NCBI GenBank assembly: GCA_021785515.1
Contig: JAJYEX010000001.1
Span: 514,196 to 578,195, forward strand
From: Pseudomonadota bacterium
GTDB lineage: Bacteria > Pseudomonadota > Gammaproteobacteria > Acidiferrobacterales > UBA6901
DNA: 64,000 nt
Reading direction: 5' to 3'
Under the pieces are notes generated by a model that was not told where the DNA came from, made no database searches, and worked only from the letters and a program-made list of their open reading frames with translations. Positions 7,900-56,179 of the stretch are shown here, piece by piece (the first letter of the stretch is position 1; each line of letters starts with the position of its first letter). Position numbers and translations under genes: made by a program.

Positions 7900-8019
7900 T
7901 CATCGGAAGAAGCCCCGCACTATGGTGTAGACAAAAAGCGCGAGCGCAACCAGGCCCAGCACAGTTGCTATCCATCTGGCGCGGCGCAGCCTACCAGTAC
8001 TGCTGGTCCTGTCGTCCAT
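7900..8019 (-). CDS. 39-aa single-TM small protein (cytochrome oxidase small assembly protein-like)
   Basis: Not in the ORF track because it is under 60 aa. My translation is MDDRTSSTGRLRRARWIATVLGLVALALFVYTIVRGFFR with a TGA stop at 7900-7902. A GGGGAG Shine-Dalgarno lies 4 nt upstream, and the ORF sits between coxA and coxC. Confidence 0.45.
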   Translation of the reverse strand: MDDRTSSTGRLRRARWIATVLGLVALALFVYTIVRGFFR

Positions 8020-8064
8020 CAACTCCCCGATAACCGTCCAGCTTTCCGCTGCTATCCGCCCGCG

Positions 8065-9630
8065 CTACTTGACCGTAGGGGCTGTGGCAAAGCTGTGATA
8101 GGGCGGCGGTGAACTCAGCGTCCACTCAAGACCTTCGGCCCCCTCCCACACCCTGTCCGTCGCTTTCTTTCCACCCTTGACCGTCTGGTAGACCACATAG
8201 ACCCACAGCAGCTGACTCAGTCCCAGACCGAAGGCGCCGATACTCGAGACGCGGTTCAGGTCAGTAAACTGCAGAGCGTAGTCGGGGATGCGGCGCGGCA
8301 TGCCGGCCAGTCCCAGAAAATGCATTGGGAAAAATGTCAGATTGAAAAAGATGGTTGTTAGCCAGAAATGCCATTTGCCCACGGTCTCGCTGTACATGTG
8401 GCCGGTCCACTTCGGGAGCCAGTAGTACGAGCCGCCCATCATGGCCATCGCCGCACCGGCAAATAGCACGTAGTGGAAGTGGGCCACAACGAAGTACGTG
8501 TTGTGGTACTGGAAGTCGGCCGGCACGATCGCCAGCATCAACCCCGACAGCCCACCGATGGTAAACATCACCAGGAAGCCGATGGCAAACAGCATGGGCG
8601 TCTCAAAACTGAGCGAACCGCGCCACATGGTGGCAACCCAGTTGAACACCTTCACGCCCGTTGGCACCGCAATCAGCATCGTCGAGTACATGAAGAACAT
8701 CTCAGCCGGCGCCGGCATGCCCACCGTGAACATGTGATGTCCCCAGACGATAAAGGACAGAAACGCGATTGACGCCGTCGCAAAAACCATGGACTCATAA
8801 CCGAACAGCGGCTTGCGCGAGAATGTCGGAATGATCTGGGAAATGATGCCGAAGGCCGGCAGAATCATGATATAGACTTCGGGGTGCCCGAAGAACCAGA
8901 ACAGATGCTGATATAGCACCGGGTCACCACCGCCGGCAGCGCTGAAGAAATGGGTACCGAAGTGGCGGTCCATCAGCACCATCGTGACGGTACCTGCCAG
9001 CACGGGCATCACCGCAACGAGCAGGAAAGCGGTGATGAGCCAGGTCCACACGAACATGGGCATCTTCATCAACGTCATGCCAGGCGCACGCATGTTGAGG
9101 ATGGTCACGATAATATTGATCGCTCCCAGCACCGACGATATGCCCAGCATGTGGATCGCGAAAATGACGCAGTCCATTCCGACGCCTGCCTGAATTGACA
9201 GCGGCGCGTACATGGTCCAGCCGGTGGCCGGCGCCCCGCCAGGCATGAAGAAAGAACTGAGCATGAGCGTGAACGCGAACGGCAGAATCCAAAAACTCCA
9301 GTTGTTGAGCCGCGGCAAGGCCATGTCGGGTGCGCCGATCATCATCGGAATCAGCCAGTTGGCGAACCCTACGAAACCCGGCATGATCGCCCCGAAAATC
9401 ATGACCAGACCGTGCATCGTGATAAGCTGGTTGAAGAAGTAGGGCTTCATGATCTGCATGCCTGGCGAAAACAGCTCGGCGCGTATCAGCATCGCGAAGC
9501 TGCCGGCGACAAAGAACATCAGCAGGCTGAATACAAGGTACATCGTACCGATGTCCTTGTGATTTGTGGTGAACAACCAACGTTTCAGGCCGACAGGATG
9601 TTCCGCGTGGGTTGCCGCTACACTTGCCAT
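8065..9630 (-). CDS. coxA: Cytochrome c oxidase subunit I
   Basis: 521 aa with the heme-copper oxidase signatures WFFGHPEVYI and HFHYV. Confidence 0.95.
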   Translation of the reverse strand: MASVAATHAEHPVGLKRWLFTTNHKDIGTMYLVFSLLMFFVAGSFAMLIRAELFSPGMQIMKPYFFNQLITMHGLVMIFGAIMPGFVGFANWLIPMMIGAPDMALPRLNNWSFWILPFAFTLMLSSFFMPGGAPATGWTMYAPLSIQAGVGMDCVIFAIHMLGISSVLGAINIIVTILNMRAPGMTLMKMPMFVWTWLITAFLLVAVMPVLAGTVTMVLMDRHFGTHFFSAAGGGDPVLYQHLFWFFGHPEVYIMILPAFGIISQIIPTFSRKPLFGYESMVFATASIAFLSFIVWGHHMFTVGMPAPAEMFFMYSTMLIAVPTGVKVFNWVATMWRGSLSFETPMLFAIGFLVMFTIGGLSGLMLAIVPADFQYHNTYFVVAHFHYVLFAGAAMAMMGGSYYWLPKWTGHMYSETVGKWHFWLTTIFFNLTFFPMHFLGLAGMPRRIPDYALQFTDLNRVSSIGAFGLGLSQLLWVYVVYQTVKGGKKATDRVWEGAEGLEWTLSSPPPYHSFATAPTVK

Positions 9631-36277: not shown

Positions 36278-36688
36278 TCACTTCTGTGTTGGCAGGTTTT
36301 CGTTCTGCCATGCAAGGATGCCGCCGGCAAGGATATGCACCGACTGGAAATTTTGGCTCCGCAGCATCGAAGCGGCCTTGGCGGAACGCTGGCTGGTGCG
36401 GCAGCTGATGAGGAGCGGGCGGCTCTTGAACTTCTCGAGTTCACTTACCCGCGTGCGCAGGGCGCTGAGCGGGATGTTGATCGCATCGGGAATGTGTCCA
36501 TTTCTGAATTCATCCGGTTCACGCACGTCGACCACCAGTGCCGAGTCGCGATTGACCATGCGCACCGCTTCGCTCACCGGCACCGACTTGATGCCACGGA
36601 GCACGCGATTCAGCGGGGCGGCAATGAGCATGACGAGGACTACTACCAGGGCCAGAAACAGATACCAGTTTTGAATCACGAACTGCAT
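36278..36688 (-). CDS. Membrane-anchored rhodanese-domain protein (YibN-like)
   Basis: Start at the ATG at 36688 (MQFVIQNWYLFLALVVVLVMLIAAP), then a rhodanese fold with the active-site loop CRTSQRS. Confidence 0.8.
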   Translation of the reverse strand: MQFVIQNWYLFLALVVVLVMLIAAPLNRVLRGIKSVPVSEAVRMVNRDSALVVDVREPDEFRNGHIPDAINIPLSALRTRVSELEKFKSRPLLISCRTSQRSAKAASMLRSQNFQSVHILAGGILAWQNENLPTQK

Positions 36689-36814
36689 TGTGGGTTCTCG
36701 GCAGAAACGGCAAGGGTTGTTGTCGGGGTTGAAGAAAAATTCGCAATGCCCGCAGGCAACGCGGACGCGGCACATGCAACACGCATCCGGGCTGCATTAC
36801 GCCCGGCCGGCGCA

Positions 36815-37147
36815 TCATGCTCCGTCGAATCGGCTGCAGAATGCAGCACGCAGCGCGCCGATGAGATTGATGATCTCCGGCTCAGCGATCCGGTAGTAAA
36901 CCTTGTTGGCGTCTTTGCGCGATGCGAGAATGCCCTTGTCGCGCAGAATGGACAGATGCTGGGAGATGTTGCTTTGAGACGTCCCCACGTGCTCCACGAT
37001 CTCCTGCACGCTGACTTCGTTTACCGCGCCCAGCATACAAAGGATCTTCAGGCGCAGCGGATGTGCCATGGCTTTCAACGAATGGGAGGCGCGATAGATG
37101 TCCTCCTCGTTGCTGATCAGGCCCACATGCTCGGCGGTCACGCTCAT
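36815..37147 (-). CDS. ArsR/SmtB family regulator, two-Cys BigR/SqrR/YgaV-like
   Basis: 110 aa with HPLRLKILCML (Cys37), the wHTH ISQHLSILRDKGIL, and a C-terminal Cys104 (AAFCSRF). Confidence 0.75.
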   Translation of the reverse strand: MSVTAEHVGLISNEEDIYRASHSLKAMAHPLRLKILCMLGAVNEVSVQEIVEHVGTSQSNISQHLSILRDKGILASRKDANKVYYRIAEPEIINLIGALRAAFCSRFDGA

Positions 37148-46246: not shown

Positions 46247-46264
46247 CTGTCATAATTATGGTAT
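46247..46264 (+). promoter_or_regulatory. Pho box upstream of phoB
   Basis: CTGTCAT-AATT-ATGGTAT, compared with the E. coli consensus CTGTCATA(A/T)A(T/A)CTGTCA(C/T). It lies 58 nt upstream of the phoB ATG. Confidence 0.5.
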
Positions 46265-46321: not shown

Positions 46322-47011
46322 ATGCCGGCAAAAATTTTGATCGTCGAAGACGAGCAGGCCATCCGTGATATGGTCTGCGTAGCGTTGCGCCATGCGGGAT
46401 ATGAGTGCCTGGAAGCGGCAGACGCCACCCAGGCCCAGGCGCGGATCCTGGCCAGCGTACCGGATATCGTACTGCTCGACTGGATGCTGCCGGGCATGAA
46501 CGGGGTGGACTACGCCCGCCGCCTGCGCCAGGACCGGCTTACCCGCCACCTTCCGATCATCATGCTGACGGCGCGCACCCAGGAAGAAGACAAGCTCAAG
46601 GGTCTGGAAACCGGCGCGGATGATTATGTCACCAAACCGTTTTCGACCAAGGAGCTGCTGGCCCGCATCCGTGCGCTATTGCGCCGCAGCGCACCACAGA
46701 CCGCCGACATCGCCGTAGCCATCGGCGGACTGCATCTCGATCCGGTCACGCACCGGGTACAGGCCAATGGAACCAAGCTTGCGCTCGGTCCGATGGAATT
46801 CAGGTTGCTACACTTCTTCATGACCCACCCGGAACGCGTGCACAGCCGGGAACGGATCCTAGACAGCGTGTGGGGCGGCAATGTCTATGTCGAAGAACGC
46901 ACCGTGGATGTACACATCCGGCGGTTGCGCAAGGTGCTTGAGGCTTCCGGCCATGACGCTCTCATCCAAACGGTACGCGGTGCTGGCTATCGCATGTCAG
47001 CGCAGGACTAG
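46322..47011 (+). CDS. phoB: Phosphate regulon response regulator PhoB
   Basis: 229-aa OmpR-family protein: ILIVEDE...DWMLPG...YRMS. Confidence 0.9.
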   Translation: MPAKILIVEDEQAIRDMVCVALRHAGYECLEAADATQAQARILASVPDIVLLDWMLPGMNGVDYARRLRQDRLTRHLPIIMLTARTQEEDKLKGLETGADDYVTKPFSTKELLARIRALLRRSAPQTADIAVAIGGLHLDPVTHRVQANGTKLALGPMEFRLLHFFMTHPERVHSRERILDSVWGGNVYVEERTVDVHIRRLRKVLEASGHDALIQTVRGAGYRMSAQD

Positions 47012-47015
47012 CTGA

Positions 47016-48329
47016 GTGCGCGAGAGCTGGGTACGCGAGTTCTCGGTGCTCGTCGGTATCCTGGCGGGCTTTTCCGCAATCGGCCTGATGTTCGGTCACT
47101 TTCTTGTTGCCATCCTATTAGGCCTTGTCATCTATCTGGCGCTTACCCTGCGGCAGCTGTTTCAGCTGCACCGCTGGCTGCAGGGGGGGCGCCGCGAAGA
47201 CATACCGGAGGCAGCAGGCCTGTGGGGGGACGTCTTCGACAGCATCCGGGTACTGATGAAGGAGACGGAACGCCGCGAGGACCAGCTCACGCAGATGCTG
47301 ACGCGCTTCCAGAACACCAGCGCTGCAACCCCGGACGCGATGGTCGTGCTGGCGCACAATGATGCCATCGAGTGGGCCAACCCGGCGGCGGAACGGCTTC
47401 TGGGAATCTCGTTCTCGCGCGACCACGGTCTGCGGGTAACGAATCTGCTGCGCGATCCGGATTTTGCCAACTACCTGAAGAGGGGCGATTTTACCGATGC
47501 GCTAACCGCCCCCTCCCCCGAACATCCCGAAAAGACCCTGACACTGCAGATCATTCCTTTCGGAAGCAGCCAGAAGCTGTTGATCGGGCGCGACATTACG
47601 CGCCTTGAGCGCCTCGAGGTCATGCGCCGCGACTTTGTGGCCAACATCTCCCACGAGCTGCGCACACCCCTCACGGTGATCTCGGGATTCCTGGAGACCC
47701 TTCAGGACATGGAGGCGCCAGCGACCAATGAGCTTCACAAACACCTGGGCACCATGCATGAACAGGCAGTGCGGATGCAGCGTCTGGTAAACGATCTGCT
47801 GACGCTATCCAAGCTCGAGACCGAGCCGCCGCCGGTACACCTGGTCCCGGTTGACGTGCCGGCCATGCTGTCCGGACTGAAGGAAATGGCGGAAATACTG
47901 AGCGGTGATCAGCATCACCGCATCACCCTGGACACCGATCCGGACCTCAAACTGCTGGGTAACGAAGACGAGCTGCGCAGCGCGTTCTCGAACCTGATCA
48001 ACAATGCCGTCCGCTACACACCGGCGAACCAGCCCATCGAGCTGAAGTGGGCCGCCACGACCCAGGGCGCGCGATTCTCGGTCACCGACGCGGGCGAAGG
48101 AATCGCCCCACAGCATATTGTGCACCTGACGGAGCGCTTCTACCGGGTGGACAGCGCCCGCTCGCGCGCCACCGGGGGCACCGGCCTGGGGCTATCGATC
48201 GTCAAGCACGTTCTTCTGCGCCACGACGCGAAGCTGCTGATCGAAAGCACGCCCGGCCACGGCAGCACCTTCAGCTGCCAGTTTCCACCGGCACGCGCGC
48301 AGCGCACTGCCCACAACCGGACGGTGTAA
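47016..48329 (+). CDS. phoR: Phosphate regulon sensor histidine kinase PhoR
   Basis: 437 aa with two N-terminal TM helices, a PAS domain, the H-box FVANISHELRTPLT, and N/G boxes. Confidence 0.9.
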   Translation: MRESWVREFSVLVGILAGFSAIGLMFGHFLVAILLGLVIYLALTLRQLFQLHRWLQGGRREDIPEAAGLWGDVFDSIRVLMKETERREDQLTQMLTRFQNTSAATPDAMVVLAHNDAIEWANPAAERLLGISFSRDHGLRVTNLLRDPDFANYLKRGDFTDALTAPSPEHPEKTLTLQIIPFGSSQKLLIGRDITRLERLEVMRRDFVANISHELRTPLTVISGFLETLQDMEAPATNELHKHLGTMHEQAVRMQRLVNDLLTLSKLETEPPPVHLVPVDVPAMLSGLKEMAEILSGDQHHRITLDTDPDLKLLGNEDELRSAFSNLINNAVRYTPANQPIELKWAATTQGARFSVTDAGEGIAPQHIVHLTERFYRVDSARSRATGGTGLGLSIVKHVLLRHDAKLLIESTPGHGSTFSCQFPPARAQRTAHNRTV

Positions 48330-49070
48330 TCCCGGGGTCACAGACCGGACACAGCGCGGTCAAAGCTAAACGTTAGTCTTGCGGTCCCGTAACTGACATG
48401 CGGGAACGGCGCGTCATGGCGCAGCAGCGAGTTGCGGCCGCCAATTGCGAACGCCAGCATATGGTAATGCATTGTTTCGTGTGCGGGGGTCACACGTACA
48501 GGGATGTTGTATCGGACCCATATGGTCCGAATACCCCACCAAAATTTGCGGTGGACGGCGGTGCCAGGGACCGACGGGGTCTTGGCACCGCTTCCGTTCA
48601 ATCAGAACATATTTCCATCCACTGGCATCCGGTTGACAAAGAAATTGGCTTTTTGATCGCCGGTAAGATGCCATCTCGCATCGCTGCCGCTTTGCGACCG
48701 CAATTGCAATTGAAGCCCGCGCGAAAGATCATAAAAGGCTTGTTTTTGAACGCTATTCCCAACTTCATCGCGGAATCAACCGGGCGCTTTCAATTGACCG
48801 TACCCGTATTTGAGCATATATTTTTCAGATGCTTGTGGATGCGGTGGGGCGGACCCGTAGCGGCGCGATATGCTGGCGCCGGATCGCCACATCATGGCGC
48901 GGATATGGATGCCGCACCCCCGCGCAGAAGCACTTTCGATTTGCAGGTGCCGGGCACCGGTTGATTCCCGCCCTGCCTGTCACCGGCCACCGCGTATGGA
49001 CCTCCCAACCGCAGCACAACCCTCAAGCTTCCCGGGGCCGGATCCTCTGGCCCGATAGCCGCTGTGAGCG

Positions 49071-50441
49071 GTGGACGGTCGACGGCCGACCCCGGCGATC
49101 GGCACAGCGCTGCTTTCTGGCATGAGCGGACGCGAATCGGGTTCGCCCGGCGACCAGAGCGAGGAATTGGCGCGCGTCCTGAATCGCGACTGCCATTGCT
49201 TGAGCATCGATGCTGACGCATTGCAGCGCGAGCTGGAACAAGATCCCCAGAACAGCGACCTCTATCATTCCATCATTGAATCGAGGCCATACCTGTTCAG
49301 CGCCTCGGCAGTGTTCGTATCGCGGCCGGACGTCGAACGCATGGCCTCCGTTATCCGTGCGGTTGAAAGCGTTGTGGCCCTGCCCGGCTACCGGGAGACG
49401 GTGCTGGCCTGGGGACCAGCCATCGCCCGGATCGACCACGGTCCGCGCGGCGTGTTTCTCGGCTTCGACTTTCACCTTGGGACGGAAGGACCACGACTCA
49501 TTGAAATCAACACCAACGCTGGCGGAGCCCTTTTGAACACCGTGCTGGCCCGGGCCCAGCGCGCCTGCTGCGATCAGGTCCGGCAGCTCGCCACGGGACC
49601 CGTGGACCTGCGCCTGCTTGAACAGGTGTTTTACGACATGTTTCTTGCTGAGTGGCGCCTGCAACGCGGTGGCGGCCAGCCCCGGGTCATCGCCATCGTT
49701 GACGATGATCCTTCGCAACAGTACCTGTATCCCGAATTTGTGCTGTTTCGGCAGCTATTTATGCGTAACGGTCTGCGGTGCGTCATCGTCGACCCCGGGA
49801 ACCTGATCTACGACGGAACTGCGCTGCGGCATGAAGGCGAGACCATAGATGTTGTGTACAACCGCCTTACCGATTTCGCGCTGGAGCAACCGCACCATGC
49901 GGCCCTGCGTGCCGCCTATGCCGAAGGTGCCGTCGTGCTGACGCCCCACCCACGCGCCCATGCGTTGTATGCTGACAAGCGTAACCTGTCGGTACTCACC
50001 GACGCGCATCTTCTGGAAACCTGGGGAGTGGATGAAGCCACACAACGCATCTTGCAGACGGGTATTCCCCATACCACGCTCATCGAGCCGGACCGCCATA
50101 CCGGCCTGTGGACCGACCGGAGAAAATTTTTCTTCAAGCCGGTGGCCGGCTACGGCAGCAAGGCCGCATACCGCGGGGACAAGCTTACCAAGCGCGCGTG
50201 GTCCGAGATTGTCGCCGGCCAGTTTGTGGCTCAGGAGACCGTGCCGCCGAGCGAACGCCGTCTGCGCGTCGGTGGTGAGGAAGTGAGTCTCAAGCTTGAT
50301 ATGCGCAATTACGTCTACAACGGCGCCGTGCAGCTGCTGTCGGCAAGGCTGTACCGGGGCCAGACTACCAATTTCCGGACACCGGGCGGCGGGTTCGCAC
50401 CTGTTTTTCTGCCCGACGCGTCCTGCGACCGGCGCCTCTGA
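49071..50441 (+). CDS. Uncharacterised ATP-grasp-type ligase with glutathionylspermidine-synthase-like layout
   Basis: GFDFHLGTEGPRLIEINTNAGG resembles the RFDF...KLLEYNADTP pre-ATP-grasp motif. It also has YADKRNLSVL and a C-terminal NFRTPGGGFAPV. The start is either the GTG at 49071 or the ATG at 49122, and neither has a clear SD. Confidence 0.5.
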   Translation: MDGRRPTPAIGTALLSGMSGRESGSPGDQSEELARVLNRDCHCLSIDADALQRELEQDPQNSDLYHSIIESRPYLFSASAVFVSRPDVERMASVIRAVESVVALPGYRETVLAWGPAIARIDHGPRGVFLGFDFHLGTEGPRLIEINTNAGGALLNTVLARAQRACCDQVRQLATGPVDLRLLEQVFYDMFLAEWRLQRGGGQPRVIAIVDDDPSQQYLYPEFVLFRQLFMRNGLRCVIVDPGNLIYDGTALRHEGETIDVVYNRLTDFALEQPHHAALRAAYAEGAVVLTPHPRAHALYADKRNLSVLTDAHLLETWGVDEATQRILQTGIPHTTLIEPDRHTGLWTDRRKFFFKPVAGYGSKAAYRGDKLTKRAWSEIVAGQFVAQETVPPSERRLRVGGEEVSLKLDMRNYVYNGAVQLLSARLYRGQTTNFRTPGGGFAPVFLPDASCDRRL

Positions 50442-50483: not shown

Positions 50484-50939
50484 ATGTATAAGCGGTGTGC
50501 GCGCATTCTGTTTGTAGACACGGACCGGCTTTCCTGCTCGCTCATGGCATGGGCCTGGTCACGGCAGCTGGGTGCGGACCGCATCGAGGCGCGCACCGCG
50601 GACATCGGCCTGCAGGCGGTGAACCCGGCCATCCAGACTGTCATGCGGGAAGTCGGGATCGATATCACGGACGTGCATTCGCCCCGCCTCACTTCGGACA
50701 TGCTGGCCTGGGCCGATCTGGTGGTCACCATCTCCGGCAGCGATTCTAAGACCGCTCCGGCGCCACTGCCGCCGGGCGTCCAGGGGAAACTCTGGCGGCT
50801 TGGCAACGCCGGGGCGACCCCGGACCTCGAGACCTGGCGCAGGTTGCGCGACACGATCCGTGATCGGATAGAAAGCATGATCGGCGGCATGAACATGCTC
50901 AAGCGGATGGACCAGGATGAACCGGCTGAGGGTGAGTAG
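50484..50939 (+). CDS. ArsC/LMW-PTP-fold protein with all catalytic residues substituted (pseudo-phosphatase)
   Basis: It aligns along its length with thioredoxin-coupled ArsC. ILFVDTDRLSCSLMA replaces I-x-F-[IV]-CTGNSCRSQMA, VVTISGSDSKTAP replaces VVTLCSDADNNCP, and LGNAGA replaces FDDPAG. Confidence 0.7.
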   Translation: MYKRCARILFVDTDRLSCSLMAWAWSRQLGADRIEARTADIGLQAVNPAIQTVMREVGIDITDVHSPRLTSDMLAWADLVVTISGSDSKTAPAPLPPGVQGKLWRLGNAGATPDLETWRRLRDTIRDRIESMIGGMNMLKRMDQDEPAEGE

Positions 50940-51003
50940 TGGATCTGGCCCGCCAGACCCTTTGTAACACACTGATTATTAATATACTTAAATATTCACA
51001 TTC

Positions 51004-51042
51004 CTGTCATATTTGTTCATCAAACTGTCATATGACAGTTGG
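51004..51042 (+). promoter_or_regulatory. Tandem Pho boxes of the pstS promoter
   Basis: CTGTCAT-ATTT-GTTCATC (51004-51021), then AAA, then CTGTCAT-ATGA-CAGTTGG (51025-51042). A candidate -10 element, CATACT, lies at 51045-51050. Confidence 0.7.
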
Positions 51043-51087
51043 AACATACTGCCCGCCGCAAACTTACCCAAATTCCTGGAGAGCAAC

Positions 51088-52134
51088 ATGTTAAATTCTG
51101 TGCATAGAAAGGGTCGCCTGTCAGCCGGCCGACTCGCGGTCGCCATTGGCACCGCTGCGCTTGCGCTGGGGCTGGCCACTGCCCGAGCGGATGAAATCAC
51201 GGGTGCGGGCAGCACCTGGGTATATCCCCTGGTTATCAAGTGGGCTGTCGCGTATCAGCATAAGACCGGCACCCAAATCAATTATCAGGGCATCGGTTCG
51301 GGCGGCGGAATTGCCCAGATCAATGCCGGCACCGTTGCGTTTGGGGCAAGTGACATGCCGCTGACGCCGGCCTACCTGCGCAAACATCACCTGATCCAGT
51401 TCCCGACGGCAATCGCCGGCGAAGACCTTGTCATGAACATTCCCGGAATCAGGCCAGGCGAGCTGATTCTGAGCGGCCCGGTTGTTGCCAAGATCTATCT
51501 TCACGAGATCGCCAAGTGGAATGACCCGCGCATCCAGGCCCTGAACCCGCACGTAAAACTGCCCAATCTCGACATCGCGGTTGTCCACCGCTCTGACGGT
51601 TCCGGCACGACTTTCACCTTCACAAACTACCTGTCCAAGGTGAGCCCGGAATGGAAGAAGCGGATCGGCGCCAACACCGTCGTCGCCTGGCCCACTGGCC
51701 TCGGTGGCAAGGGTAACGAGGGCGTCGCCGCCTATGTGCAGCGTATTCGCGGTGCGATCGGCTACGTCGAGTACGCCTACATCCTCGAGAACCACATGAC
51801 CTATGCCCGGATGTACAACCGCGAGCACCGGCTGGTGAGCCCGAGCCTGGCCGGATTCCAGGCGGCCGCCTCACACGTCGACTTCACCAAGGCGCATGAC
51901 TTCTATGTCATCCTCACCGACCAGCCCGGTCCGACCACTTGGCCGATTTCAGGCTGCACGTGGCAGATCCTGCGCACCAATGCGCCCAAAGCCAAGAACG
52001 AGAAAGTGGTGAAATTCTTCAGCTGGGGCTTCGAGCATGGCCAGAGCATGGCACGGTCCATCGCCTTCGGACCTCTGCCTCCGCCCACGGTCCGGGCGAT
52101 TCAGGCCTACTGGATGAAACATCTGGGTATATAA
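51088..52134 (+). CDS. pstS: Phosphate ABC transporter substrate-binding protein PstS
   Basis: The ATG at 51088 follows GGAGAG. It has the signal peptide AVAIGTAALALGLATARA and the motif GAGSTWVYPL. The track start at 51013 lies inside the Pho boxes. Confidence 0.9.
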   Translation: MLNSVHRKGRLSAGRLAVAIGTAALALGLATARADEITGAGSTWVYPLVIKWAVAYQHKTGTQINYQGIGSGGGIAQINAGTVAFGASDMPLTPAYLRKHHLIQFPTAIAGEDLVMNIPGIRPGELILSGPVVAKIYLHEIAKWNDPRIQALNPHVKLPNLDIAVVHRSDGSGTTFTFTNYLSKVSPEWKKRIGANTVVAWPTGLGGKGNEGVAAYVQRIRGAIGYVEYAYILENHMTYARMYNREHRLVSPSLAGFQAAASHVDFTKAHDFYVILTDQPGPTTWPISGCTWQILRTNAPKAKNEKVVKFFSWGFEHGQSMARSIAFGPLPPPTVRAIQAYWMKHLGI

Positions 52135-52199
52135 GTCCGTGAAGTATTTGGGCATCTAAGTCGCGGGTACCGGATCATTCGTCGCGATTTAGGTGAAAG

Positions 52200-52229
52200 A
52201 CGGGGCCGTTTCGGCCCCGTTCTTTTCTT
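52200..52229 (+). terminator. Intrinsic terminator/attenuator between pstS and pstC
   Basis: ACGGGGCCG-TTT-CGGCCCCGT (perfect 9-bp stem, 52200-52220) followed by TCTTTTCTT. Confidence 0.6.
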
Positions 52230-52300
52230 GGCCCCTACGCTCTGATATAACCTGCCCCGACCATTTCCCTTACACCAGACCAGCCTGTCCGGGAGATTTC

Positions 52301-53254
52301 GTGGAAAAACCGCCTTCGCCGCCTCGCCTGACCCGTCTATGGGACCCCCTGTTCAAGGGGACAACGGCAGCCTTGGCGTACATGGTGCTCATACTGCTGG
52401 TGGCAGTTTGTCTCGCCTTGCTGCACCAGGGCGCACTGGCGTTCCGGACCTTTGGCTGGCATTTCCTCGTCAGCAAGGCCTGGGATCCCGCCAACAACCA
52501 CTTTGGCGCCCTGATTCCGATCTACGGCACCCTGGTCAGTTCGCTGATTGCCATCGTTATCGCAGTCCCGGTCAGTCTGGGCATCGCACTGTTTATCACC
52601 GAACTGGCGCCACGGTGGCTTCGCCAGCCGGTCTCGGCCGCCATCGAACTGCTCGCCGCTATCCCCAGCATCATCTTCGGGATGTGGGGCCTGTTTACTT
52701 TTGCTCCCTGGTTTTCCGGTTACGAACCCTGGATCAGCGACCATCTGGGATCCATTCCGGGGGTCGGTGCCCTGTTCCGCGGACCGCCGTTTGGAATCGG
52801 CATGCTGACGGCCGGGATCATATTGGCCATCATGATCATTCCCTTCATTGCCTCCATCATGCGCGAAGTGTTTCTGCTGACACCGCCGCTGCTTAAGGAA
52901 TCGGCCTATGGCGTAGGCGCTACCACCTGGGAAGTGCTGCGCAACGTGGTGTTGCCGTACACGCGCACGGCGGTGGCCGGCGGCATCTTTCTGGGTCTGG
53001 GACGGGCGCTGGGCGAGACGATGGCCGTAACGTTCGTCATTGGCAACGCCCACAGTATCAGCGCCTCACTGCTCAACCCCGGCTATTCGATCGCCGCGGC
53101 GCTAGCCAATGAGTTCACCGAAGCCTTCTCCCCACTGTACAAGTCCTCGCTGATTGCCCTGGGATTCATTCTGTTCATCATAACTTTCATCATCCTCGTC
53201 CTGGCGAAGCTGCTCCTTCTGCGGCTTGAGCGTGCGCAGGGCGAATCGACATAG
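52301..53254 (+). CDS. pstC: Phosphate ABC transporter permease PstC
   Basis: Polytopic permease containing an EAA-like loop. The GTG at 52301 follows GGGAGA and is preferred over the track start 52193, which would include the terminator hairpin. Confidence 0.85.
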   Translation: MEKPPSPPRLTRLWDPLFKGTTAALAYMVLILLVAVCLALLHQGALAFRTFGWHFLVSKAWDPANNHFGALIPIYGTLVSSLIAIVIAVPVSLGIALFITELAPRWLRQPVSAAIELLAAIPSIIFGMWGLFTFAPWFSGYEPWISDHLGSIPGVGALFRGPPFGIGMLTAGIILAIMIIPFIASIMREVFLLTPPLLKESAYGVGATTWEVLRNVVLPYTRTAVAGGIFLGLGRALGETMAVTFVIGNAHSISASLLNPGYSIAAALANEFTEAFSPLYKSSLIALGFILFIITFIILVLAKLLLLRLERAQGEST

Positions 53255-53263
53255 GGCACCGCC

Positions 53264-54103
53264 GTGGATTTGCGCTACCTCAGACGACGCTTTACCAACG
53301 TGTTCAACCTCGGGATGGCGGTGGCGACCACCGTCCTGGGACTTTTCTGGCTGCTCTGGATCCTCTACACCACCGCGCGCTTCGGATACCACAATCTCAA
53401 TCTGGCGCTGTTCACCCAGGATACCCCTGCTCCCGGAGCCCCGGGCGGGCTGCGGAACGCCTTCGTAGGCAGCCTGATCATGATTGGCGTCGCCATCGCA
53501 GTGGGGACACCGGCGGGCGTCCTGGCTGGCACCTATCTGGCGGAATTTGCCGGACGCCGACGCATCGGCGAAATCGTGCGCTTTTTCAATGATATCCTTC
53601 TGAGCGCCCCTTCCATCGTCGTCGGGCTGTTCGTCTATTCAGTGGTGGTGTCAGTGACCGGCAATTTTTCCGGGCTCTCCGGGGGGCTGGCGCTTGCCAT
53701 CGTTCTGCTTCCGGTCGTCGTACGCACAACGGATGAGATGTTGCGCCTGGTGCCATCGACCATGCGGGAAGCCGCCATGGCGCTGGGCTCCCCATACTGG
53801 AGGGTGGTTGTTCAGATCACCTATCGGGCGGCACGCTCGGGGATCCTGACCGGGGTATTGCTCGGGGTCGCGCGCATCAGCGGGGAAACGGCCCCGCTGC
53901 TTTTTACGGCCCTGAATAACCAGTTCTGGAGCACGAATCTATCTAAACCCATGGCAAACGTACCAGTCACCATATTCCAGTTCGCCCTGAGTCCCTACCA
54001 GGGATGGCAGCATCTGGCGTGGGCTGGCGCGCTGGTCGCCACTTTCGCGGTTCTTGGGCTAAGCATTTTTTCCCGCTTCCTCATCAGGCAAAGGAACAGT
54101 TAA
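53264..54103 (+). CDS. pstA: Phosphate ABC transporter permease PstA
   Basis: 279-aa polytopic protein with a GTG start, containing MREAAMALGSPYWRVV. Confidence 0.9.
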   Translation: MDLRYLRRRFTNVFNLGMAVATTVLGLFWLLWILYTTARFGYHNLNLALFTQDTPAPGAPGGLRNAFVGSLIMIGVAIAVGTPAGVLAGTYLAEFAGRRRIGEIVRFFNDILLSAPSIVVGLFVYSVVVSVTGNFSGLSGGLALAIVLLPVVVRTTDEMLRLVPSTMREAAMALGSPYWRVVVQITYRAARSGILTGVLLGVARISGETAPLLFTALNNQFWSTNLSKPMANVPVTIFQFALSPYQGWQHLAWAGALVATFAVLGLSIFSRFLIRQRNS

Positions 54104-54877
54104 ATGAGCGGTACAGCGCCACCGGAACCGAAGATCAGCGTGCGCAACCTGAACTTCCATTACGGCAAGTTCCATGCACTGAAGAACATCAGCCTGGACG
54201 TTGCCGAACGCGAGGTCACGGCCTTCATTGGCCCCTCCGGCTGCGGAAAGTCCACGCTTCTGCGGGTCTTTAACCGCATGTACGCGCTTTATCCGAACCA
54301 GGTGGCGACCGGGGAAGTGCTTCTGGACCAGCAGAATATCCTTGATCGAAGGCAGGATCTGCACCATCTGCGTTCCCGGGTCGGCATGGTCTTTCAGAAA
54401 CCGACTCCGTTCCCCATGTCGATCTACGACAACATCGCCTTCGGCGTGCGCCTGCATGAGCGGCTGAAAAAGGGGGCCATGGATGACCGGATCGAGGCGG
54501 CGTTGCGGCAGGCGGCCCTGTGGGACGAAGTCAAGGACAAGCTCAAGCAGAGCGGTATGAGCCTGTCTGGCGGACAGCAGCAGCGGCTGTGTATTGCACG
54601 TGCAATCGCTGTCAGACCGGACGTTTTGCTGCTGGACGAACCGGCATCGGCCCTCGATCCGATATCGACCCTCAAGATCGAAGAGCTGATTTATGAGCTG
54701 CGACAGAATTACACGATCGTCATCGTGACGCATAATATGCAACAGGCCGCGCGCGTGTCCGACTATACTGCGTTCATGTACCTGGGGGAACTGGTGGAGT
54801 TTGGTGACACCAACTCGATCTTCACCAACCCGAGCCAGAGGCAGACGGAAGACTACATCACCGGCCGGTACGGCTGA
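54104..54877 (+). CDS. pstB: Phosphate ABC transporter ATP-binding protein PstB
   Basis: Walker [10 protein letters not shown], signature LSGGQQQR and Walker B LLLDEP. Confidence 0.95.
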
Positions 54878-54893: not shown

Positions 54894-55613
54894 ATGGAGC
54901 CCATTCATACGCACATTTCCCGCCAGTTCAACGCCGAACTTGAGGACATCCGCACGCGGGTTCTGCAGATGGGCGGACTGGTCGAGCGGCAGATAGAACA
55001 CGCGATCGAATCCCTGGTGAAGGGCGACGTGAACCTTGGAGAAGCGGTCATCATGGACGACACCAAGGTGAACGCCATGGAGGTGTCCATCGATGAGGAA
55101 TGCAACCAGATCATCGCCAAGCGCCAACCGGCGGCCAGCGACCTGCGGCTGGTGGTAGCGGTAATCAAGACCATAACGGATCTGGAGCGTATCGGCGACG
55201 AAGCCGAGAAGATTGCCCGCATGGCGGTGCGCCTGGCGCAGGAGGAACGGCCGAAAAGCAACTACATGGAGATCCAGGCGCTAGGAAACAGGGTGCAGCA
55301 GATGCTGCGTGACGCCCTGAACGCCTTTGCTCGCCTGGACGCAACGGCTGCGGTCCACTCCGCGCAGGAAGACATCAAGGTGGACCAGGATTATGACGGC
55401 GTGATGCGCCAGATGATCACGTTCATGATGGAAGATCCCCGGACAATCAGCCGCATGCTGAACGTAATCTGGGCCGCGCGCGCGCTCGAACGCATCGGGG
55501 ACCACGCCAGCAACATCTGCGAGTATGTAATCTATCTGGTCAAGGGCAAGGACGTGCGGCACGTCAGTCTCGAGCAGATCGAGAAGGAAGTGCTGGGCGG
55601 AAAGAACGTCTAG
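54894..55613 (+). CDS. phoU: Phosphate signalling complex protein PhoU
   Basis: The ATG at 54894 follows AGGAG (MEPIHTHISRQFNAELEDIR). Two PhoU repeats contain E(R)IGD motifs. Confidence 0.9.
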   Translation: MEPIHTHISRQFNAELEDIRTRVLQMGGLVERQIEHAIESLVKGDVNLGEAVIMDDTKVNAMEVSIDEECNQIIAKRQPAASDLRLVVAVIKTITDLERIGDEAEKIARMAVRLAQEERPKSNYMEIQALGNRVQQMLRDALNAFARLDATAAVHSAQEDIKVDQDYDGVMRQMITFMMEDPRTISRMLNVIWAARALERIGDHASNICEYVIYLVKGKDVRHVSLEQIEKEVLGGKNV

Positions 55614-55640: not shown

Positions 55641-55871
55641 TCAGGCGTGATGAACCTGGGACTCTTCGTCCCTAAGCGCATCCATGATGCGGCGCCGGAT
55701 AAGTACCGGCAGATATTCCATGATTTTTGCGCCGGCCTTGAGTTTCTCCAGCTCCGACTCATACAGCGCCTCTATTTTACCCTCAGGCAGTCCGCACTGA
55801 AGTGAAATAGCGTGGATCAGTTCATGGTGCACCGCGCGCTCTTTCTCATTCTGGTAGAGCTCGTTTGACAT
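55641..55871 (-). CDS. Small protein resembling DUF3562
   Basis: The ATG at 55871 follows GGGAGG. The product is MSNELYQNEKERAVHHELIHAISLQCGLPEGKIEALYESELEKLKAGAKIMEYLPVLIRRRIMDAL. Confidence 0.55.
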   Translation of the reverse strand: MSNELYQNEKERAVHHELIHAISLQCGLPEGKIEALYESELEKLKAGAKIMEYLPVLIRRRIMDALRDEESQVHHA

Positions 55872-56179
55872 AGTGCCTCCCTTGTCGATTATTGATTTCC
55901 CATATCCGCCCGCCGCCACTGCCGCTGCAGTTTACTCCGACCAGACCCTAGAGGCCCGTCAATTTTTGGGGTGGGCATACGCCGGTCGACAGATACATTT
56001 CTAAATAATAAGAAAGAAAATTTTGTTAATGCAATACTAAATGTTAGATTTGTAAGTATCTGGTCTTATATGAATTTATTCTGACTTGTCCGTCCAGGTA
56101 TCCGGCTATTCCTGACGGCGCACTGGCCCCAGGCAGCCCGGTGTCCCCGGACATGCAGCGGTGCGATAATGAAACATTT

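Follow-up and report, generated by a model that had tools for sequence, protein, structure and literature searches.

A catalytically dead arsenate reductase homologue between phoBR and pstSCAB-phoU, probably a retained relic of an ars cassette

Background

Why should a gene whose product resembles an arsenate reductase, and has lost every catalytic residue of one, be kept between phoBR and pstSCAB-phoU? The question is raised by a 64,000-nt stretch of a gammaproteobacterial genome (Acidiferrobacterales, UBA6901; GenBank assembly GCA_021785515.1, contig JAJYEX010000001.1, positions 514,196 to 578,195 of the forward strand). We refer to this whole stretch as the window, count all positions from its first letter, and call the gene and its product ArsCx. 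A preliminary description of the window had regarded the protein as a pseudoenzyme and had proposed, from its position, a role in oxyanion binding or Pho regulation. We consider it fairly likely, with a probability of roughly 0.6, that ArsCx is the dead arsC relic of an ars cassette, which selection has kept and which has been re-used as a non-catalytic binding module.

50484..50939, + strand: ArsCx (name used here), ArsC-derived, catalytically dead protein with the fold of the LMW-PTPs (protein tyrosine phosphatases of low molecular weight), 151 amino acids (aa); identified as an open reading frame (ORF) with ATG start, by homology to thioredoxin (Trx)-type ArsC, by an AlphaFold2 (AF2) model searched with Foldseek, by the ratio of non-synonymous to synonymous substitution rates (dN/dS) and by the G+C content of third codon positions (GC3)

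Catalytic residues and predicted fold

A phmmer search of the Protein Data Bank (PDB) with ArsCx returned Trx-type arsenate reductases (2ipa_B, E=1.9e-13; 1jl3_A, E=2.9e-12; 1jf8_A, E=9e-12) over residues 8-131, with an identity of 30–33% and E values of about 1e-12. Two NCBIfam models matched, PRK13530 (E=3.9e-18, 66.1 bits) and arsC_pI258_fam (TIGR02691; E=9e-17, 61.5 bits), at about one third of their curated cut-offs of 215 and 174.3 bits, which were not reached. The Pfam model LMWPc gave 17.9 bits (E=0.0037), below its gathering score of 23.2, and aligned with its N-terminal 92 profile positions only. To judge from these searches, the homology to Trx-type ArsC, which the preliminary description had seen along the 151-aa protein, is far above the level of chance; phmmer and NCBIfam agree on it, with LMWPc staying below threshold. 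The base composition by codon position (GC1/2/3 = 0.63/0.49/0.81) is like that of the neighbour genes.

The catalytic positions were placed by HMMER pairwise alignments and by two MAFFT alignments (with 1jl3, 1jf8 and 2ipa), all of which agree. They fall into three segments, and in each the residues are replaced in the way the preliminary description had stated:

50517..50540, + strand: former P-loop, CX5R(S); CTGNSCRS has become D12-T-D-R-L-S-C18-S19 (Cys10 to Asp12, Arg16 to Cys18)

50733..50756, + strand: former redox-relay loop; VVTLC(82)...C(89)P has become VVTIS84GSDSKTA91P (Cys82 to Ser84, Cys89 to Ala91)

50805..50807, + strand: general-acid position; WGFDD(105)P has become WRLGN108A (Asp105 to Asn108)

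ArsCx has only two cysteines, C5 and C18, and no C-x5-R was found anywhere in the protein, so that aligning it differently would not bring the catalytic residues back. Since all five catalytic positions are replaced, the chemistry of the family is lost; going by its sequence, ArsCx cannot perform arsenate reduction or phosphoester hydrolysis by the mechanism of its family.

An AF2 model built from an alignment of close relatives reached a mean predicted local distance difference test score (pLDDT) of 84.4 and a predicted template modelling score (pTM) of 0.81. The top Foldseek matches of this model in the PDB were pI258 and Bacillus subtilis ArsC (2cd7, 1jf8, 1jl3; E = 3e-12 to 2e-10, template modelling score (TM) 0.81–0.89), the best of them being pI258 ArsC (E=3e-12, TM 0.89), and ordinary LMW-PTPs ranked lower. 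The strand-loop-helix of the P-loop region is kept in the model (strand 6-12, loop, helix 18-30; pLDDT about 83), and residues 115-144 form a single long C-terminal helix. The LMW-PTP fold is thus predicted with confidence to be retained.

Origin of the locus

The relatives' loci discussed below carry L numbers. They come from a scan of one genome per species, which held no genome of the window's own species, and from earlier and metagenome searches. The closest database relatives of ArsCx are 38–45% identical to it and share two terminal motifs that are not found in canonical ArsC.

Several of these loci have an intact arsC together with acr3 in the same surroundings. For example, L005, from a Sulfuricaulis metagenome-assembled genome (MAG), has the order pstS< arsR arsC acr3 pstCAB phoU with all catalytic residues of ArsC in place, and L006 has arsR arsC acr3 pstSCAB, again with an intact arsC. 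In L018 the order is gbbh< phoB phoR psiE arsR ligase arsC acr3 pstCAB phoU, where arsC is intact and the ligase is a predicted ATP-grasp enzyme described further below. L081 reads phoB phoR ... arsR arsP ... ligase arsC acr3, while L083 and L103 share this layout and continue with pstSCA. L042 and L090 were counted as ancestral too, an intact arsC and acr3 lying between their phoBR and pst genes.

The gene order of the window itself, gbbh< phoB phoR ligase ArsCx pstS pstC pstA pstB phoU, is matched exactly in four loci (L010, L013, L014 and L016). The proteins flanking the ArsC-like gene in these loci are 77–97% identical to those of the window; with the gene order being the same, the ArsC-like genes of the five syntenic loci are therefore orthologues. 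The genes concerned are located in the window as follows:

46322-47011, + strand: phoB (ORF, synteny; Pfam on the orthologous genes in L008)

47016-48329, + strand: phoR (ORF, synteny; Pfam on the orthologous genes in L008)

49122..50441, + strand: predicted permuted ATP-grasp ligase, similar to glutathione synthetase and glutathionylspermidine synthetase, 439 aa (AF2 and Foldseek; 42 nt upstream of ArsCx)

51088..52134, + strand: pstS (PBP_like_2; Pfam, ORF, synteny)

52193-53254, + strand: pstC (start uncertain)

53264-54103, + strand: pstA (downstream of pstC)

54104-54877, + strand: pstB (downstream of pstA)

54897-55613, + strand: phoU (start uncertain)

All five syntenic loci lack arsR and acr3. 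No acr3 was found anywhere in the window, whose sole ArsR-family match lies about 13 kb away (36815-37147). A search for remains of arsR, psiE, arsP, Trx, OsmC and acr3 in 48250-49200 and 50900-51120 gave nothing better than E = 0.6. In the clade of the window, linkage to the pho genes is seen in the window and in L008, L010, L013, L014, L016 and L021. Because the intact relatives carry this linkage together with acr3, it must be older than the loss of activity. Judged by these gene orders, ArsCx owes its place between phoBR and pstSCAB to descent from an ars cassette (arsR-ligase-arsC-acr3). In arsenic islands, arsR, arsC and acr3 have been described as recurrently linked on the DNA to pstSCAB and pho genes (Li et al. 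2013, Front Microbiol, PMC3834237).

Stepwise loss of activity in related loci

The syntenic copies differ in how much of the active site is left. In L014, the P-loop GTGNSCRS is complete apart from a Gly in place of Cys10, and Asp105 has become His. In L013 (GTGDSCPS) and L016 (GTGGPCQS), Cys10 is likewise Gly and Arg16 is lost too. The loop of L010 (GLGPRGRS) is more eroded, with Arg16 kept. Cys82 and Cys89 are both present in all four of these copies. The window copy (DTDRLSCS), in which all five positions are gone, is the most eroded; Ser19, the serine following the CX5R motif, is kept in 5/5 copies. There is no frameshift or stop codon in any of the six related loci (these five and L021). 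The syntenic series thus runs from an intact enzyme through a Cys10-to-Gly change and an eroded P-loop to the dead copy of the window, a clean natural time course of an enzyme becoming a pseudoenzyme once the acr3 pump has been lost.

A neighbour-joining (NJ) tree places the window and L010 copies with a long-branch inactive clade, while those of L013, L014, L016 and L021 nest inside the intact ArsC proteins of the pho- and acr3-linked clade. We read this split as long-branch attraction, because synteny of the full locus makes the five loci orthologous. At least two independent losses of activity can be taken from the NJ tree, and we put no count beyond two on it.

The two aspartates of the window loop might be taken as a new active site. 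ILFVDTDRL puts Asp at the former positions of the nucleophile and of Gly12, so that D12-x-D14 at the end of strand beta-1 could form an Asp-based phosphoryl-transfer site recalling the DxDxT of HAD enzymes, and ArsCx would still be an enzyme. A D-x-D/E occurs at this place in a few other inactive relatives as well (L022, DED; P0062, DTE; P0078, DSE). However, the motif is found in no orthologue, as L010, L013, L014 and L016 all have Gly at position 10, and counterparts of the other HAD motifs are not evident. Moreover, a single nucleotide change leads from the Gly codon of the sister species to D12, which is most simply explained as a neutral step. We therefore regard a switch of chemistry as extremely unlikely.

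A wider family of inactive ArsC-like proteins

A profile of the clade was searched against 1.84 billion cluster representatives and the best 150 sequences were analysed, a list that is biased toward motif-bearing sequences. We define the family by an N-terminal M-YKRKARILF and a C-terminal EGMIGGMxMLxR, plus the core segments WADLVVT and LPPGVQ. ArsCx carries all four, as MYKRCARILF, WADLVVT, LPPGVQ and ESMIGGMNMLKR. Its terminal motifs are:

50484..50513, + strand: N-terminal motif MYKRCARILF (family consensus M-YKRKARILF), running into strand beta-1; among the most conserved columns of 57 inactive and 13 intact motif-bearing relatives

50847..50912, + strand: C-terminal helix motif RDTIRDRIESMIGGMNMLKRMD (family consensus RDxIRxRVEGMIGGMxMLxRxD); conserved columns, a long helix in the AF2 model

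The C-terminal helix motif reaches past the end of canonical ArsC. Among the best 150 sequences, both motifs without the C10/R16/C82/C89 set were found in 57 non-redundant sequences, as against 13 intact ones. Cys10 is missing in 53/57 of the inactive sequences, which have Ser, Gly, Asp, Glu, Ala or His in its place. Their least conserved segment, as in the syntenic relatives, is the P-loop (for example GLGPRGRS, GTGDSCPS, GGLHPVPP, SGHAVGA, or deletions), and their most conserved ones are the N-terminal motif, WADLVVT, LPxGVQ and the C-terminal helix. Cys89 is kept in 39 of the 57, and 32 have Asp at position 82. We also asked whether the terminal motifs track the presence of the ligase gene, which is not strictly the case: the ArsC of L042 adjoins the ligase and lacks the motifs.

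In the genome scan and the earlier loci, acr3 lies next to 0/23 inactive motif-bearing copies, compared with 5/9 intact ones. Among the genomes examined, 7/23 inactive members are linked to pho genes and the other 16/23 are not. The co-occurrence with pho/pst genes that would be expected from the preliminary description is conserved within the window's own clade and is seen in a minority of the inactive members examined. According to the locus records, the carriers include Sulfuriferula, Gallionellaceae, Sulfuricellaceae, Thioalkalivibrio, Thiohalorhabdus, Acidiferrobacterales and Sulfurifustaceae.

An inactive copy is followed by a gene for a protein with a cNMP_binding domain in 7 loci. These are Sulfuriferula and related loci. 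The gene encodes 170–174 aa in L055, L058, L060, L069, L059 and L061 (at about 8.0–9.0 kb; 1.6–2.5 kb in L058), and in L060 it lies 38 nt downstream of the inactive ArsC-like gene. In L022, a single 333-aa ORF (7995-8996) matches both LMWPc and cNMP_binding, an apparent fusion seen on one MAG contig only. The cNMP-binding partner of these other clades suggests a regulatory flavour.

Public databases label members of the family as 'hypothetical', 'arsenate reductase', 'protein-tyrosine-phosphatase' or 'LMW phosphatase family protein', and we found no curated NCBIfam or Pfam model specific to it. Part of the inactive family is under as much constraint as active ArsC, it has kept its terminal motifs and not its active site, and one member appears fused to a cNMP-binding domain; together these features suggest an undescribed non-catalytic role for this fold among Proteobacteria that oxidise sulfur and iron. 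One might go further and see a widespread, unnamed family of non-catalytic proteins that arose from arsenate reductases time and again to serve in binding or signalling, with paired or fused cNMP-binding partners in some bacteria and an arsenic- or thiol-related ATP-grasp ligase here, and that connect arsenate/phosphate or redox status to regulation without catalysis. We hold this broader view tentatively and consider it rather doubtful. In any case, metagenomes would seem richer in potential arsenic resistance than they are if inactive copies were counted as arsC, and at least 57 non-redundant sequences are affected.

Selection on ArsCx

Has ArsCx been kept, or is it merely still there? Among the five syntenic loci, its pairwise dN/dS is 0.20–0.42 (Nei-Gojobori), with synonymous sites near saturation in the comparisons that involve the window; the neighbour genes of the same loci have values of 0.01–0.14 (pstS left out). 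Unsaturated ArsCx pairs are L013-L016 (dN 0.06, dS 0.25) and L013-L014 (0.22 and 0.56). Changes were assigned to the window branch at unambiguous codons where L010 agrees with the group of L013, L014 and L016. This gave 11 non-synonymous and 16 synonymous changes, a pN/pS of 0.23 that differs from neutrality (binomial p = 1.5e-4); a count purposely generous to non-synonymous changes gave 0.30. With 51 independent inactive members of the family as reference, the differences between the window copy and its relatives favour the variable columns (Fisher p = 1e-5 to 1e-9), and ArsCx retains 29/34 columns that are conserved at >=70% in these 51. Other metagenome contigs carry an ArsCx gene of identical sequence, so there is no within-species signal.

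Several observations weigh against a maintained and re-used protein. Besides the near saturation of synonymous sites, the constraint on ArsCx is 2–5 times weaker than that on the neighbour genes and 2–3 times weaker than that on intact ArsC. By the generous count, 29 amino-acid changes fall on the window branch and 12 on the L010 branch, an about twofold asymmetry that the ligase and phoR do not display. The window copy also lacks both Cys89 and Asp82 and so departs from the consensus of the inactive family. An open frame alone is weak evidence in DNA of 62–69% G+C, and long spurious ORFs are numerous in the region. Finally, a non-catalytic binding role is our best inference and an adaptor role is inference pure and simple, and the non-pho-linked majority of inactive members has other neighbours, so that function may differ between clades.

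Most of these points are what one would expect if arsC had become useless after the loss of acr3 and arsR and were now drifting into a pseudogene, its frame being open for the sole reason that GC-rich DNA has few stop codons and time has been short. The stepwise loss of catalytic residues in the sister species fits such a decay as well. However, dN/dS on the window branch is significantly below 1, as it is in the unsaturated pairs, the substitutions spare conserved columns, and neither a frameshift nor a stop codon has appeared in six loci. GC3 (0.81) is that of real genes. Moreover, inactive relatives elsewhere are constrained like active enzymes: the inactive subgroup of Sulfuriferula has a dN/dS of 0.10–0.15, the same as the intact ArsC of the pho- and acr3-linked clade (0.07–0.22). 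It thus seems unlikely that ArsCx is simply decaying. The constraint, as estimated from these alignments, is relaxed yet real, and ArsCx is better described as a maintained non-enzyme than as a plain pseudogene. A homologous fold, lost catalytic residues and purifying selection together make up the pattern of a pseudoenzyme; on this point the preliminary description, which had seen the fold as kept and the chemistry as lost, is supported by AF2, Foldseek, the residues lost and the selection found here.

The upstream ligase gene

The gene 42 nt upstream of ArsCx adjoins the ArsC-like gene in 5/5 syntenic loci. Its product has no Pfam or PDB sequence match, and its homologues, at least 8000 at about 60% identity, are all annotated as hypothetical. 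An AF2 model (pLDDT 83, pTM 0.86) matched the ligase Cp1B (9cjn), eukaryotic glutathione synthetase (1m0w, 2hgs) and glutathionylspermidine synthetase (3n6x, 2io7) in Foldseek, all of which we take to be enzymes of the permuted ATP-grasp type. In an alignment of 16 sequences, C24-x-C26 and C149-C150 are invariant, and dN/dS is about 0.1.

The same gene lies within ars operons in L018, L042, L080, L081, L083, L090, L103 and others. Of 53 metagenome loci of >=5 kb that contain it, 13 carry ars genes (found with a limited query set), so that the linkage is real and not universal. A literature search for an ATP-grasp ligase of ars operons found nothing relevant. As it recurs by arsC or acr3, this uncharacterised ligase family is a candidate new arsenic-related gene. 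We interpret the window locus as keeping a two-gene remnant of the ars cassette, the ligase and the dead ArsC.

Regulation and possible function

The Pho boxes between ArsCx and pstS had given rise to the idea of a Pho-related role:

50994..51038, + strand: pstS Pho boxes, ATTCACA / CTGTCAT / GTTCATC / CTGTCAT in 11-bp phasing, conserved in L010, L013, L014, L016 and L021

The two CTGTCAT repeats are found at 51004 and 51025, and the first starts exactly 64 nt past the ArsCx stop codon, as reported before. In the syntenic relatives this distance is 83–261 nt. We assign the boxes, from their sequence and placement, to the promoter of pstS. Another CTGTCAT at 46247-46253 (+), about 70 nt upstream of the phoB start and followed by AT-rich sequence, is consistent with autoregulation of phoBR through a Pho box. 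No CTGTCAT was found between the phoR stop codon (48329) and the ArsCx start, and thus none ahead of the ligase/ArsCx pair. The 18-mer Pho-box consensus of Escherichia coli, with up to 3 mismatches, had no match near ArsCx, in a scan that also missed the pstS and phoB promoters. These promoter-sequence scans gave no direct sign of Pho control over ArsCx, which may be read through from phoBR.

The spacer between phoR and the ligase gene contains a sigma-70-like TTGACC-17-TATATT at 48794-48822 (+), inside the second of its conserved patches and without a Pho box; it is a possible promoter of the ligase/ArsCx pair itself. Farther upstream is a conserved non-coding element of two hairpins (about 48476-48530). 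Hairpin 1 (CGTGTGC...GTCACACG) is invariant in 5/5 syntenic loci, and in hairpin 2 (CGGACC-CATAT-GGTCCG in the window) pairing is kept via two-sided changes in four pairs. It might serve as an operator or form a structured RNA. No gathering score was reached in an Rfam scan of the window. For an ORF overlapping this element (48398-48964, +), several metagenome contigs have a gene call of 182 aa; the ORF has no Pfam match and a GC1/2/3 of 0.60/0.50/0.58, lies in a low-GC spacer, and is probably not a gene.

The earlier proposal can be cast as follows: ArsCx would sense phosphate or arsenate without catalysis, binding them where the P-loop used to act, and would pass the signal on to Pho regulation or Pst transport. 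The loop is predicted to keep its strand-loop-helix geometry, Ser19 is present in every syntenic copy, and 7 inactive relatives sit between phoBR and pst. In addition, the GTGNSCRS of L014 is a complete P-loop minus its nucleophile, as in the pseudophosphatase STYX, so that sensing is plausible at a stage like that of L014. However, the P-loop is the least conserved segment in the orthologues and in the inactive family, where Pro-rich and deleted versions occur, and the window loop carries Asp12 and Asp14 and has lost Arg16; a variable loop with two aspartates argues against a conserved anion pocket. The pho linkage is explained by the ancestry in an ars cassette and is missing in 16/23 inactive members, and the Pho boxes lie downstream, serve pstS and are at no conserved distance. 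With no Pho box ahead of the pair, the position of ArsCx does not imply the role that had been read from it, and we think an oxyanion sensor quite unlikely.

Instead, we favour re-use as a binding module, along the following lines. The ancestor of ArsCx was the arsC of an arsR - ATP-grasp ligase - arsC - acr3 cassette inserted between phoBR(-psiE) and pstSCAB-phoU. The lineage of the window lost arsR and the arsenite pump gene acr3, with the ligase gene and the arsC descendant staying adjacent. The nucleophile Cys10 went first (Gly in the sister species) and Arg16 and Asp105 next, the Cys82/Cys89 relay being lost too in the window copy. The chemistry of the family mechanism is gone and the protein is nevertheless kept by purifying selection, probably now as a non-catalytic binding or adaptor module that would act via its conserved termini and scaffold and not via the former P-loop. 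The conserved adjacency suggests the ligase, presumably co-transcribed, as the likeliest partner; a component of the phosphate/arsenate-handling machinery would be the alternative. The promoter-like site in the phoR-ligase spacer, and not the pstS Pho boxes, probably drives expression.

Other features of the window

The ArsR-family match mentioned above belongs to a pair of ORFs on the reverse strand (36278-37147, -), in which a 110-aa helix-turn-helix protein, matched by the L005 arsR query, adjoins a 165-aa ORF that looks rhodanese-like by eye. The expected As(III)-binding Cys motifs were not seen by eye in the ArsR-family protein, and the two probably are a sulfur/redox regulator pair rather than an arsenic repressor.

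Directly past phoU lies a DUF3562 gene (55641-55919, -). Another one is found beside the ars/pst cluster of L006, so this may be a recurrent neighbour. Over about 3.5 kb, the metagenome contig L001 is identical to the window but for 53 differences that cluster in pstS, in its 3' part (51786-52014). They may stem from a recombinant pstS allele at strain level, or from an assembly in which a paralogue was joined to the gene.

Comparison with known systems

The nearest known systems are the ArsC proteins of Staphylococcus aureus pI258 and B. subtilis (PDB 1jf8, 1ljl, 1jl3, 2ipa; TIGR02691), to which ArsCx is alike in end-to-end homology and in predicted fold. Its intact close relatives likewise occur in arsR-arsC-acr3 operons. 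Unlike pI258-type ArsC, ArsCx lacks all five catalytic residues and has extra conserved terminal segments (MYKRxARILF, MIGGMxMLxR), and arsR and acr3 are not beside it. The arsenic islands of PMC3834237 show the same linkage of ars and pst/pho genes, and the window locus is a reduced version of them. Those islands were defined around the aioBA arsenite oxidase genes and have active ars genes, whereas the window locus has lost pump and repressor and holds a dead reductase.

In the literature searched we found no paper that pairs 'arsenate reductase' with 'pseudoenzyme' or with 'lacks the catalytic cysteine', and none on a bacterial LMW-PTP pseudophosphatase. A pseudoenzyme branch of Trx-type ArsC has thus apparently not been described so far. 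Its significance lies in the consequences for annotation, in an unusually clear decay series and in the hint, at the level of a family, at a non-catalytic function.

There are precedents for such a change of function in other protein families. The regulators Spx and MgsR have the glutaredoxin-type ArsC fold (PF03960, thioredoxin-like) and bind RNA polymerase, and Spx keeps a CxxC redox switch. They are examples of an 'arsenate reductase' fold re-used in a non-reductase binding or regulatory protein. However, their family is unrelated to ArsCx, which has no conserved Cys.

In the pseudophosphatase STYX, the catalytic Cys is replaced by Gly and an intact phosphate-binding loop is kept. STYX, and within the LMW-PTP family the Drosophila proteins Primo-1 and CG31469, share with ArsCx a phosphatase-type fold that has lost its Cys nucleophile, and a gene that selection has retained. 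These three are eukaryotic protein phosphatases and not arsenate reductases, and the loop of ArsCx is eroded where that of STYX is intact. The GTGNSCRS of L014, on the other hand, displays exactly the Cys-to-Gly change of STYX.

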